A stretch of 64,000 nucleotides of DNA from a bacterium (GTDB lineage Bacteria > UBA8248), in assembly GCA_965213625.1 (NCBI GenBank), contig CBDBZU010000004.1:3040001-3104000 (forward strand). Direction: 5' to 3'. Below are positions 23,160 through 40,242 of this stretch, in pieces (the stretch's first letter is position 1; the number at the start of each line of letters is the position of its first letter). Both the position numbers and the translations under genes were made by a program. The notes under the pieces were generated by a model that was not told where the DNA came from, ran no database searches, and saw only the letters and a list, made by a program, of their open reading frames with translations.

Positions 23160-23850
23160 ACAGTAAGGACAGGCCCCCGTGCCTGTCCGCCGCCGCCGCC
23201 CCCCGGACCTTCATCCTGAGTAGGCCCGCCAGGGCCGTATCGAAGGATGGACCCGACTGGGGAGAGAGCGCCCCTTCGACAGGCTCAGGACAGGCCCTTC
23301 GATACGCGGCTTCGCCGCTACTCAGGGTGAGGGGTTCTGTGGACGCCTGGAAAACCACCCCCTACCCCCCTTTTGACAGGGGGGGCAAGAAAAGCCTTCC
23401 TGACAAGGGATTGTTGAAAAGTCCCGGGAAACGGATTTTGATCGCGCGTACGCCTTTGAAGTTCACTCCCTCTTGTTGAAAAAGCCCGGTGATGGAGAAA
23501 TTGAAGTGTAGGGACAACCCCTCCTCGGGGTTGTCCTGCCCTCCGTGGTTGTCCTTTTGCAGGATAGTTACAATCAGGACAGGCACGGAGGCCTGTCCCT
23601 ACGGGAGCATCATGTCGCCGACCGGAAGAAACAAGGTCTTTTTCAACAGACCCTTGAGGGGGGAGTGAAAAACCTTGGGGGTCATCTACCGAATAGCGAA
23701 GCCGGAGCATTTTCAACAGCCCGCGCGGCGCGGGTGTGCGCGGTGGTTTTGTAGCCGTAGGGACAGGTCGCGACCTGTCCTTACCGACTCCCTCCCCGAT
23801 CAACTCCATATGCCGAATCACACTGTAAATGGTTTTTCAACAACCCCAAG
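23160..23850. repeat. Nested cluster of REP-like palindromes and MITE-like ends (cluster A)
   Basis: GTAAGGACAGG..CCTGTCC 23163; CATCCTGAGTAG..TATCGAAGG / CCTTCGATAC..CTACTCAGGGTGAG pair 23212-23331 with nested CCCTTCGACAGGCTCAGG; five TGTTGAAAA/TTTTCAACA ends; REP doublet 23508-23602; palindrome 23757-23784. Confidence 0.85.
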
Positions 23851-36593: not shown

Positions 36594-36634
36594 AGAGCTT
36601 CCAAAAAACTTCTTTCGTTCGCGTGGGGAAATCA

Positions 36635-38503
36635 ATGCTCGGATATCAAGGAAAAATACTTCACATCGACCTCAGCAACCGCACGTCCCGCACCGAGGAA
36701 TTCGGTGAAGAGATGGGCCGCAAATACCTGGGCGGAAACGGCTTCGGAGCCAAGATTCTCTGGGACCACCTGAAGCCCCGAACCGACGCGCTATCTCCTG
36801 AAAACATCATCGTCTTCGCCGTGGGGCCGTATACGGATTCCGCCGTGCCGAGCGCGAGCCGCGCGTGCGCCGCCTCCATCAGCCCGCTCACCGGGCTCTT
36901 CTTCGACTCCACCTTCGGCGGTGCGTGGCCCATCACCTTGAAGCGCACCGGGTGCGACGCTGTCGTCCTGCACGGAAAGGCCGATTCCCTGGTCTACCTC
37001 ATGCTCACGGAAGACGGCGTTGCGTTCAAAGACGCGAGCCACCTCAAGGGTAAATGGATTCGGGAGACGTGCGACACCATTACCGATACCGAGGGCGGCA
37101 CGGACGTATTGGCCATCGGCCCCGCCGGGGAGAACCAGGTGCGCTTCGCGGCCATGGCGCACACCTGGCGCAAGAGCCGAGACGGCATCAGCGGACGCGG
37201 GGGCATGGCGGCGGTTCTGGGAAGCAAGAACGTCAAGGCCATCGCCGTGCGCGGCAAGGCGAAAACCGCCTGGGCGGACGCCAAGGCGCTCAGGACCTAC
37301 GTGAACGAGACGGCGGAGGACGTGCGCACGGGCACGGCGGCGCTCCACAAATACGGAACGCCGATTCTCGTCAACATGATCAACAAGATGGGCGCGCTCG
37401 GCACGCGGAACCTCATGAGCGAAATCTTTGAGAACTGCGAACCCATCAGCGGCGAGTACATGCACGACAATTTCCTGGACAAGCACACCACCTGCCTCAA
37501 ATGCCCGGTGGCGTGCGGCAAGAATTTCAAGATGAAAGGCGGCGATTTCGACGGCCTGGTGTGGAAGCTCCCCGAGTACGAGACCATTTTCGCGCTGGGA
37601 ACCATGCTGGGCATCGGCGACCCGGGCGTCATGCTCCAGGCGAACATGCTCTGCGATGAACTGGGGCTCGACACGATATCCGCAGGCGTCACGCTCTCGC
37701 TGGCCTTCGAGAGCATGGAGAAAGGACTATTGAGCGAGGCGGAAGTCGGCGAGCCCCTCAACTGGGGCGATTCCGCCACCATGCTGAGGCTCCTGGAGGA
37801 CATGACCCACCGCAAGGGCTTCGGCGACAGGCTGGCCGAGGGCGGCAAGCGCCTGGCCGCGGATATCGGCGGCGACGCGCCCAATCTTCTGTATGCTTCG
37901 CGCGGACTTGAACTCCCGGCGCACAGCGCGCGCGCGCTCAAGGGCATGTCCATCGGCTACGCCACCGGCACGCGAGGCGGCAGCCACCACGACACCCGCC
38001 CCACCCTGCAGTACGCCTCTGACCACGACAATACCTCGACCGAGGGCAAGTCCGAGTTCGCCGTGCGCACGCAGAACTTCACGGCGCTTGGTGATTCCAT
38101 CACCCAGTGCCGCTTCACGGCGGAGCGCGGCTACGGGGCGATGATCAATGAAAAATATGCGGAAATGCTCAACCTGGTGACCGGCTGGGATACGACGGCG
38201 GATGAGCTGGAGGAAACCGGCGAGCGCATCTGCAACCTGGAGCGCGCCCTCCACGTGCGCGAAGGGGTGAGCCGCGCGGACGACATGCTGCCGTACAAGG
38301 TGATGCACGAGCCGATTCCCGACGGGCCGCACAAGGGGATGCACTGCCCGCCTGATGAGCTCGAAGGCATGAAAAACGAGTTTTATGGCATCCGCGGCTG
38401 GGATGAGAACGGGTTCCCCACGCAGGCGACGCTTCAAAGGCTCAAAATGGATGACGTGGCCGATGCGCTGGCAAACAACGGCGGGGGCAACGGCGCGGGT
38501 TGA
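36635..38503 (+). CDS. aor: Aldehyde:ferredoxin oxidoreductase (tungsten AOR family)
   Basis: YLGGNGFG, SPLTG, IGPAGEN, GRGGMAAVLGSKNVKAI, CLKCPVAC, PEYET, CDELGLDTIS, TGTRGGSH. Confidence 0.93.
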   Translation: MLGYQGKILHIDLSNRTSRTEEFGEEMGRKYLGGNGFGAKILWDHLKPRTDALSPENIIVFAVGPYTDSAVPSASRACAASISPLTGLFFDSTFGGAWPITLKRTGCDAVVLHGKADSLVYLMLTEDGVAFKDASHLKGKWIRETCDTITDTEGGTDVLAIGPAGENQVRFAAMAHTWRKSRDGISGRGGMAAVLGSKNVKAIAVRGKAKTAWADAKALRTYVNETAEDVRTGTAALHKYGTPILVNMINKMGALGTRNLMSEIFENCEPISGEYMHDNFLDKHTTCLKCPVACGKNFKMKGGDFDGLVWKLPEYETIFALGTMLGIGDPGVMLQANMLCDELGLDTISAGVTLSLAFESMEKGLLSEAEVGEPLNWGDSATMLRLLEDMTHRKGFGDRLAEGGKRLAADIGGDAPNLLYASRGLELPAHSARALKGMSIGYATGTRGGSHHDTRPTLQYASDHDNTSTEGKSEFAVRTQNFTALGDSITQCRFTAERGYGAMINEKYAEMLNLVTGWDTTADELEETGERICNLERALHVREGVSRADDMLPYKVMHEPIPDGPHKGMHCPPDELEGMKNEFYGIRGWDENGFPTQATLQRLKMDDVADALANNGGGNGAG

Positions 38504-38564
38504 GATAGCACGCCGGCGAAATGATGTTCATGTGGGGACAGGCACAGGGGCCTATGGGATAGCC

Positions 38565-38920
38565 TTGAGGAGGGGCTGTTGCTAAGAAATAGCCCTCCTT
38601 CTCCACTCGGCATACAGCTATCGCTCCTTGCTCAGTCGCGAATGCCCTCCCGGTCAGGAAAACAACCATAGGTGCGAAATTCATCCAGCCTCCCTGGCTG
38701 CTGGAAACGCCGATCCAGGCGGTGGGTGAGGTCGCTCTCTCCCCGGTCGTGAGCGACCTCAGTCGTCCGCATTTCCCCGCAATTGCCGCCACAGCGTTTT
38801 TGGTGAAATGCGCGAGAATCCACGCGCTGACCGGTAGTCCGGAGGAGGTCGTCATGTCCATTTCAAGGAACCACGAGAACCCCGCCCGGACTGGCCGATC
38901 CGTCCCCGCCCGAGGGGATT
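38565..38920 (-). ncRNA. Candidate structured non-coding RNA, family not recognised
   Basis: Intergenic between convergent genes; several consecutive hairpins; G-U pairs favour the minus strand; possible 5'-3' closing stem; AT-rich upstream region. Confidence 0.5.
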
Positions 38921-39087
38921 CGAAGATAATGAACAATTCGATAAATATCGATAAATTCACGGGGTTATTCGATAAATTCCTGAAAATTAATTGAGGGTTA
39001 TTCGAAGCAATATCAACCGTATACGGATTTCACAGGTCGTTTTTCAGGATATTTCGGCGCGCAAAATATTCAAGGGTTATGTAAAAT

Positions 39088-40242
39088 TCAAGCCGGGTAT
39101 TTCTCCACAAGGCGCTTCGCAATGACGATACGCTGAATGTCGTTCGTGCCCTCCCCCACCTGCAGGAGAATGGAGTCGCGGTAATAGCGCTCGACCGGCA
39201 ACTCCTTGATGTAGCCGTAGCCCCCGTGAATGTGGATGGCGGCTTCGGAGGCCCGCTGGCAGGCGTCGGAGGCGAAGAGCTTCGCCATGCCGGCCTCTAG
39301 ATCGCACCGCTCCCCCTGGTCTTTCATGCGCGCCGCGCGGTAGGTGAGCTGCCGGGCGGCTTCGAGGGAGGTGGCCATGTCCGCGAGCTTGATCTGGATG
39401 GCCTGATACTCGGCGATGGGCTTGCCCATGCTCTTTCTCTGCTGGGCGTATTTGATGGAATCCTCAAAACAGGCGGCATGAAGCCCCACCGCCCGTGCGG
39501 CCACCTGTATACGGCCCAACTCCAAGGCCGCCATAAGCTGATGGAATCCCCTGTTCTCCTCACCAATCAGGTACGAAGCCGGGACCGGGCAGTCGTCAAA
39601 TACCAGCTCTCCCGTCCGAAGCCCCTTGTAGCCCATCTTGTCCAGATGGCGGCTGGCGCTGAAACCGGGCAGATTCCTGTCCATGAGGATGCAGCTAATC
39701 CCCCGGGTGGGTTTTTCCGCCTTGGGGTTCGTACGGGCCATGATTGCGAAATGCGTGGCGTTCTCGCTGTTGGTGATGAACATTTTAGAGCCGTTGACGA
39801 TGTAATCCTGCCCTTCGCGGCGGGCGGACGTTCTCAATGCCGCGACGTCGGAGCCGCCATCCGCCTCGGTGATGCCGATGCCGAAACGCATTTTGCCTTC
39901 AGCCACATTCGGAAGCCACTCCTGTCGCTGCTCGTCGTTGCCGAATTCGTTGATCATCCATCCCACCATCGAATGTCCACCGAGCACGCCGGTCAAACTC
40001 ATCCAGCCCCGCGCCAATTCTTCGGTCAGAACTGTAAAACTCATCGCATCCATCTCGCTGCCGCCGTAGCATTCCGGCACGAGAGCGCCGAAATACCCCA
40101 ATTCCTTCATCCGATTGACCAGTGGATGCGGGTATTCGTCTTTATGCTCATACTCGCTGGCGACGGGGATGACTTCCTGGTTCACGAATTGCCGCACACT
40201 GCTTTGCAGTGCAGTCTGAAACTCGCTCAACTGAACATCCAT
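39088..40242 (-). CDS. Acyl-CoA dehydrogenase
   Basis: GITEADGGSD, NGSKMFITNS, KMG.KG..TGELVFD, GRIQVAA, HGGYGY, GEGTNDIQR. Confidence 0.95.
   Translation of the reverse strand: MDVQLSEFQTALQSSVRQFVNQEVIPVASEYEHKDEYPHPLVNRMKELGYFGALVPECYGGSEMDAMSFTVLTEELARGWMSLTGVLGGHSMVGWMINEFGNDEQRQEWLPNVAEGKMRFGIGITEADGGSDVAALRTSARREGQDYIVNGSKMFITNSENATHFAIMARTNPKAEKPTRGISCILMDRNLPGFSASRHLDKMGYKGLRTGELVFDDCPVPASYLIGEENRGFHQLMAALELGRIQVAARAVGLHAACFEDSIKYAQQRKSMGKPIAEYQAIQIKLADMATSLEAARQLTYRAARMKDQGERCDLEAGMAKLFASDACQRASEAAIHIHGGYGYIKELPVERYYRDSILLQVGEGTNDIQRIVIAKRLVEKYPA

Follow-up and report, generated by a model that had tools for sequence, protein, structure and literature searches.

A structured intergenic stretch of a Nitrospinota genome is probably a mosaic of interspersed repeats and not an RNA gene

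The stretch at positions 38565-38920 of the 64,000-nt window, the window being the whole stretch of DNA that was analysed, is probably a mosaic of interspersed repeats and not an RNA gene. It sits inside an intergenic gap of 583-584 nt (38504-39087) bounded by two converging genes, an acyl-CoA dehydrogenase gene on the minus strand and an aldehyde:ferredoxin oxidoreductase gene on the plus strand, and makes up the variable inner part, together with the flank, of a repeat composite that is old and decayed. At least five repeat families and one lineage-specific palindrome make up the gap. Visible constraint across the genus is confined to two parts: an AT-rich repeat module (AT module) together with the spacer that connects it to the dehydrogenase stop codon, and a 64-nt promoter-like block. 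The features of the gap and of its two flanking genes are:

36623..38503, plus strand: aldehyde:ferredoxin oxidoreductase gene (Pfam AFOR_N, E 1.9e-68; AFOR_C, E 1.3e-120)
38514..38601, no strand assigned: hairpin related to GCTGTTGAAAAA-type repeats plus a REP half-site (38536-38553); 5-9 matches in the own genome
38610..38655, no strand assigned: member of a low-copy repeat family; 8 weak BLAST matches in the own genome, with E up to 1
38727..38761, no strand assigned: perfect 11-bp hairpin with the recurrent loop motif CGACCGGGGAG, found 29 times in the genome
38767..38830, plus strand: conserved promoter-like block of 64 nt; 117 genome copies (pattern search, at most 4 mismatches)
38829..38900, no strand assigned: long imperfect palindrome (the long hairpin), lineage-specific; no other match in the own genome
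38930..38992, minus strand: AT-rich interspersed repeat module of ~60 nt; 66 BLAST copies in the own genome
38993..39087, no strand assigned: AT-rich spacer, single-copy in the own genome and conserved at orthologous loci
39088..40242, minus strand: acyl-CoA dehydrogenase gene (Pfam Acyl-CoA_dh_N/M/1, E 1e-47 to 5e-34); its stop codon forms the gap boundary

The mosaic was mapped through a sensitive BLAST search of positions 38450-39150 against the own genome, counting the other copies that cover each segment. Read from the dehydrogenase side, the AT module (38992-38930) is covered by 65-79 other copies and the block (38830-38767) by 7-30, with none covering the long hairpin between them. Further along, 38765-38660 has 1-3 weak matches, 38655-38610 has eight other copies and 38595-38514 has 5-9. 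When the gap was searched against this genome and 60 relatives, matches were found in 17 of the 22 other genomes of the genus, in none of the 14 genomes from the family's other genera and in none of the more distant ones, and nearly all of them are accounted for by two things, the AT module and segments that align at orthologous loci. A distant-mode search of plasmid and phage collections with the gap returned no match.

At the orthologous loci, only positions 39087-38930, which run from the dehydrogenase stop codon through the AT module, and positions 38830-38767, the block, can be aligned; the rest of the gap is replaced or absent in the relatives. Spacer and AT module align at 72-81% identity in G003, G005, G020, G017, G018, G012, G011, G014 and G002. 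Gap length differs widely: against 583-584 nt here, five orthologues have gaps of 658, 1001, 1240, 1243 and ~1239 nt. Another gene takes the far side in G020 (L011/L147), G011 (L022/L140) and G016 (L144), and the locus is rearranged in G008 (L021) and G022 (L026/L152). The gap is thus a synteny breakpoint in five genomes, where either the dehydrogenase side or the oxidoreductase side adjoins other genes. In the comparison with G022, the homologous part stops precisely at the block's outermost base. The position of the long hairpin, a 73-nt palindrome here, is occupied by a 14-nt palindrome in G008, a 38-nt palindrome in G022 and unrelated sequence of roughly 190-290 nt in eight other orthologues. 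The gaps of G003 and G005 (L009, L010) also hold an extra ~700-800 nt of lower G+C content, located ~430-1240 nt past the dehydrogenase stop codon and absent here.

The preliminary description had read the minus strand of this stretch as a stand-alone, multi-domain non-coding RNA of 320-350 nt started from the neighbouring AT-rich tract. All of the stems it listed are present in the sequence, and most are recovered in the minus-strand minimum-free-energy fold: the long hairpin lies at 38900-38829, GCGCG/CGCGC and GCAUUUC/GAAAUGC fall within the block (38830-38767), the 11-bp hairpin occupies 38761-38727, CAGCC/GGCUG is found near 38700-38683, and the closing stem is as first described. The intergenic location, the lack of a family for the ORFs found there and the folding energy of the minus strand (-153.2 kcal/mol, z -2.47, 1 of 100 shuffles as good), which is 7.6 kcal/mol better than that of the plus strand, are consistent with such an RNA. 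The plus strand, however, is just as unusual (-145.6 kcal/mol, z -2.71, a value that none of 100 shuffles reached), so that the excess of structure is modest and indicates no strand, a pattern typical of palindromic DNA. Searches with the 4227 Rfam models gave no match at gathering score in the whole window and none at E≤10 in 38300-39300, and a tRNA/tmRNA search was likewise empty.

Covariation, which the preliminary description had itself chosen as the yardstick for its RNA, was assessed on two alignments. GCGCG/CGCGC, GCAUUUC/GAAAUGC and a small inner stem were written onto the block alignment of 11 loci, where none of the 13 pairs had changed on both sides in any of the 11 sequences (covariation score 0); the substitutions break pairs, and in 5-6 of the 11 sequences two positions of the GCAUUUC/GAAAUGC helix do not pair. 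The 11-bp hairpin and CAGCC/GGCUG were aligned across three sequences in all (the own one plus G002 and G013), a small number for such a test; again, none of the 16 pairs had changed on both sides, and three outer pairs of the 11-bp hairpin are lost in both relatives without compensation. The long hairpin occurs in this genome alone. With no compensatory change, helices broken in relatives and no conservation as a unit, the reading as a non-coding RNA fails, and we consider such a gene highly improbable. The candidate appears to have been a false lead created by stacked palindromic repeats, and the case shows that, where a genome is rich in repeats, a favourable z-score for folding does not amount to evidence for an RNA gene.

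The tract proposed as the start of this RNA is AT-rich as described, with a G+C content of 0.36-0.40 over 38900-39099, but it belongs to the 66-copy interspersed repeat, whose copies occur in all neighbour orientations. A consensus scan of 38400-39200 found no sigma-70-like promoter and no terminator-like site on either strand. The only promoter-like signal in the gap reads along the plus strand, opposite to the proposed RNA.

This signal resides in the 64-nt block. On the plus strand, the block consists of two 10-bp direct repeats, CGCATTTCCCCGCAATTGCCG (38768-38788), a 25-nt spacer and the -10-like hexamer GAGAAT (38814-38819), which has the A at position 2 and the T at position 6 by which a -10 element was judged. 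Throughout the 117 copies the hexamer keeps a fixed offset; its second base is A in 86 of them and its sixth base T in 84, in a genome of 59% G+C, and subfamilies carry CAGAAT, TATGAT, TATCCT, TATCGT or GAGAAT, all of which keep positions 2 and 6. Across 11 related loci, mean column identity of the block alignment is 83%; both repeats and the hexamer are invariant and the spacer is variable, a pattern that would suit a promoter lacking a -35 box and served by an activator site further upstream. A -35 hexamer was looked for 16-18 nt upstream of the -10-like hexamer, where there are no conserved columns, and the consensus scan finds no promoter here. The block also precedes genes, for example recombinase gene pairs and a transaldolase-like gene. 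A role as a general promoter of annotated genes was rejected, as blocks show no enrichment ahead of genes running in their direction: among 108 intergenic blocks, 15 have such a gene within 300 nt downstream compared with 25 when flipped, counts that are approximate because the gene map is a crude GC-frame ORF filter that chose the wrong strand at least once. Judged from these patterns in the DNA, the chances that the block is an active promoter seem about even.

If it is active, the block may belong to a plus-strand unit whose short transcript, containing a hairpin or a small ORF, would cross the AT module, reach the 3' end of the acyl-CoA dehydrogenase gene in antisense orientation and act as a cis-antisense or leader-type regulator. 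The invariant repeats and hexamer, the fixed hexamer offset and the presence of the block ahead of real genes are in line with this, as is the arrangement immediately downstream. The long palindrome holds GGAGGAGG (38841-38848) and an ATG (38854) on the plus strand, which opens a 46-aa ORF (38854-38994), and a Shine-Dalgarno motif with ATG is found 34-50 nt past the hexamer both here and in eight orthologues, where the Shine-Dalgarno motif is strong and the ORFs begin with MERTIR or MERAIR. These ORFs, however, do not evolve as coding sequence: variable sites are spread over the three codon positions (21, 16, 20 of 57; 13, 13, 14 of 75) with no third-position excess, no ORF exists at the equivalent place in G008 and G022, and the 46-aa ORF has no Pfam match. 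We consider this plus-strand unit distinctly unlikely. Codon-type conservation of the ORFs, which the preliminary description had raised as a sign against its RNA, was thus not found. Small protein genes at 38854-38994 (plus), 38442-38960 (minus) and 38722-38994 (plus) were rejected, being without Pfam match, absent or different in orthologues and not coding-like.

The second conserved part, the AT module, has a core of ~55 nt with three TTTATCGA boxes at spacings of 21 and 10 nt. An exact-pattern scan for this core through one genome per prokaryotic species recovered at least 102 stretches, and among the matches listed, 80 of 80 records are titled Nitrospinota, Nitrospinaceae or 'bacterium'. 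Three functional assignments were tried and rejected. The module is not coding, as its reverse frame (..DKFTG..), the only one sometimes open, is not consistently so in 64 tabulated copies and closes within a few codons in many of them; conservation is flat over the codon positions (1.31, 1.22 and 1.30 bits), with no 3-nt period. Neither is it a general gene promoter, its neighbour arrangements being unbiased (21, 19, 15 and 11 of the 66 copies, approximate counts given the same crude gene map). Finally, the TTTATCGA boxes are not DnaA boxes of this organism, since the region upstream of dnaA contains four boxes of the classical type (at most 1 mismatch) and no TTTATCGA.

The two modules tend to occur together. 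An AT module lies within 1.5 kb of 62 of 93 block-motif matches in one count and of 93 of 117 blocks in another. An alignment of 22 copies revealed a common layout, in which a block pointing inwards precedes the AT module and at least one block pointing back follows 100-300 nt further on, with similarity ending sharply at the outer ends of the blocks. Twenty inverted block pairs, 242-519 nt apart, enclose no ORF of 100 aa or more. With their inverted ends, small size and lack of an ORF, these composites look like MITEs. The focal copy retains the AT module and the right-hand block only, and with it a single end. Inspection of 17 composites revealed no target-site duplication, and a search for gene-bearing elements enclosed by inverted blocks at distances of up to 6 kb found none; one end of this type is, however, present upstream of recombinase gene pairs. 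Of the 1536 ends of segments duplicated recently at large scale, one has an AT module compared with ~12 expected, which gives no sign of current mobility. At C4:3900629, comparing presence and absence between G003 and this genome gave a 90-nt difference and no clean insertion. Unit numbers vary as well, with 2 to ~6 copies of the 10-bp unit and a similar variation in 24-28-nt hairpin units. Two loci (G000 C4:3113650-3113800 and 3271280-3271400) have AT module and block separated by ~47-nt units in tandem (CCCTATGAAACGGCTGCGA..), and both loci also share an AT-rich stretch of ~150 nt.

A multi-copy match of 1.1-1.3 kb adjoining some of the blocks led to tandem pairs of tyrosine-recombinase genes, both genes of a pair encoding Phage_integrase and Arm-DNA-bind_3 domains. 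None of these genes reaches an NCBIfam equivalog cut-off. This genome has ~10 such loci with 53-85% identity between them, and elsewhere in the genus up to 27 matches are found per genome, with none in five genomes. The loci on contig C4 of G000 are:

C4:5733-8094, recombinase locus
C4:190490-192851, recombinase locus
C4:~334500-336840, recombinase locus
C4:~487890-490320, recombinase locus
C4:~955730-957700, recombinase locus
C4:~1725270-1727640, recombinase locus
C4:~1975060-1977430, recombinase locus
C4:4071924-4074274, recombinase locus
C4: near 3512200-3513300, single recombinase copy

The paired genes and their high copy number suggest a mobile element. Both ends of the composites are matched upstream of these genes. 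The pairs at C4:5733, 190490 and 4071924 have a CAGAAT-type block and leader ~340 nt upstream in the same direction, and block and leader (C4:5391, 190148 and 4071582) align with 11 composites at their left ends, with 70-89% identity across 103-154 nt. Upstream of the pair at C4:487892, two blocks and the stretch with them correspond to composite right ends as far as the point where the AT module begins. By these alignments, both conserved modules are homologous to upstream regions of the multi-copy tandem recombinase pairs. The preliminary description had alternatively suggested the RNA-encoding end of a mobile element sitting next to a REP. This alternative goes in the right direction: the conserved pieces do match recombinase upstream regions and a REP relic does adjoin, but an RNA-encoding end is unsupported.

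All 17 genus genomes with the AT module contain the recombinase family (E≤1e-30) and none of the 5 without the module does, a co-occurrence that may reflect few independent events, as the five genomes without either feature may form one clade. Block matches also occur in three recombinase-free genomes (6 in G007, 4 in G001 and 1 in G009), so the block may be a host regulatory motif, possibly an older one of which the element makes use, and not a transposon end. Whether the recombinase link is causal appears evenly balanced on these comparisons.

For the mosaic reading, the following mechanism can be proposed. The composite would derive from a tyrosine-recombinase element and be what is left, in non-autonomous form, of its regulatory or attachment region, with the phased direct repeats, namely the 10-bp units and the TTTATCGA boxes, serving as putative protein-binding sites. 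The block would be an activator-dependent promoter on the plus strand that reads through the palindrome into the AT module. The GC-rich palindromes would be selfish or neutral DNA and at most act as 3'-end barriers or stabilisers for the converging mRNAs. Taking this further, we tentatively hypothesize, as a possibility we would not favour over its negation, that the AT module and the 10-bp arrays are binding and recombination sites of an undescribed multi-copy element (~10 loci per genome) driven by a tandem pair of Arm-domain tyrosine recombinases, and that the ~66-117 composites are its non-autonomous MITE-like derivatives with a portable activator-dependent promoter. Were the recombinase link causal, it would provide an unusual example in which tyrosine recombinases mobilise small non-autonomous elements and these spread a promoter-like cassette. 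If the hypothesis holds, one element family would have distributed a single regulatory motif through the intergenic regions of an entire Nitrospinota genus.

The REP relic noted in the preliminary description at the edge of the stretch proved correct. Positions 38536-38553 are a half copy of a family of GACAGG..CCTGTC palindromes with 124 copies in the genome, the gap holding only this half-site. Short imperfect palindromes of this kind are present in many intergenic copies, and two copies lie within 400 nt of, and flank, the only Y1_Tnp match of the genome (22.3 bits, 27.5 with neighbours), a Y1-transposase-like gene at C4:1978614-1978778; the assignment as REP follows from this arrangement. 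Seven full REP-type palindromes are found elsewhere in the window, at 23168, 23578, 23762, 32542, 33682, 34047 and 36485.

Clusters of REP sequences can function as transcription barriers or 3'-end stabilisers. The palindromes of the gap might likewise be kept as two-way transcription barriers or 3'-end stabilisers of the converging genes, an explanation that is compatible with the repeat mosaic. It gains from the location of the gap between convergent genes, an arrangement shared by 11 of the 66 AT modules, and from the similar situation at C4:3900629 in both this genome and G003. Against it, the hairpins are not conserved between species and none is followed by a U-tract, there being no site in 38400-39200 with the GC-rich hairpin and U-tract of an intrinsic terminator. 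Overall, we consider such a retained function rather unlikely.

The 11-bp hairpin is part of a further repeat family. Its loop motif, with 29 occurrences in the genome, is found twice in a reversed-sequence control and is usually flanked by short inverted or tandem arms of varying sequence. Members with a conserved purine-rich loop (CGACCGRRGAG..) form short hairpins or 24-28-nt tandem units, for example at G000 C4:417990-418100, 410480-410400 and 1395860-1395960, the focal member being 38727-38761; arrays often lie just after an AT module. A constant loop combined with arms that vary from copy to copy is odd for a REP-like repeat.

Several known repeat systems resemble the locus in architecture. 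The REP/BIME mosaics of enterobacteria are intergenic, often between convergent genes, and form patchworks of short palindromic and linker motifs. The gap is similarly an intergenic patchwork of motifs present at tens to hundreds of copies, in a genome with a REP-flanked Y1-transposase (RAYT-like) gene. It differs in that there is no sequence relation and that the conserved modules are phased direct repeats, one with a promoter-like hexamer. BOX elements of Streptococcus pneumoniae are interspersed and modular, and the number of their internal units differs between copies, comparable to the varying 10-bp units (2 to ~6) and 24-28-nt hairpin units described here, but sequence and phylum are unrelated. 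Attachment sites of lambda- or P4-type integrases combine arm-type sites with sites for bending proteins, as phased repeats next to AT-rich DNA. The recombinases found here carry an Arm DNA-binding domain, and phased direct repeats lie beside AT-rich DNA; in contrast to such arm regions, the ~66-117 modules are scattered and mostly far from any recombinase gene. Multi-recombinase elements of the RIT and GInt types are described as trios or quartets, whereas pairs are found here. Correia elements (CREE) of Neisseria are described as small, non-coding, bounded by inverted repeats and able to create a promoter at either or both ends, around an IHF-binding core (PMC2649163). The inverted blocks with their -10-like hexamers around an AT-rich core are reminiscent of this layout. 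Set against that description, the elements here are longer (~240-520 nt), modular and show no target-site duplication at the copies inspected; the likeness is one of architecture. On sequence grounds, the locus belongs to none of REP/BIME, BOX or CREE. A description of these repeats was not found among literature titles and abstracts, a thin basis for calling them unpublished. What is worth keeping is the repeat system, comprising two genus-specific modules of phased direct repeats that are tied to recombinase pairs and mark synteny breakpoints.

Other repeats were observed in this genome. A ~1.53-kb repeat with nearly 30 copies at 95-100% identity (e.g. G000 C4:618792-620340, 801301-802834 and 3738863-3740408) is probably an active insertion sequence, and a second family of ~1.54 kb (C4:589094-590635) has ~7 copies; AT modules are not located at the ends of either. 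Two large duplications were seen, one of 11.1 kb at 99.8% identity (C4:1-11070 and 184758-195821), which starts at contig base 1, and one of 13.5 kb at 98.3% (C4:15146-28638 and 4111211-4124725). These are either real segmental duplications or an effect of the assembly, the genome being rated 5% contaminated.
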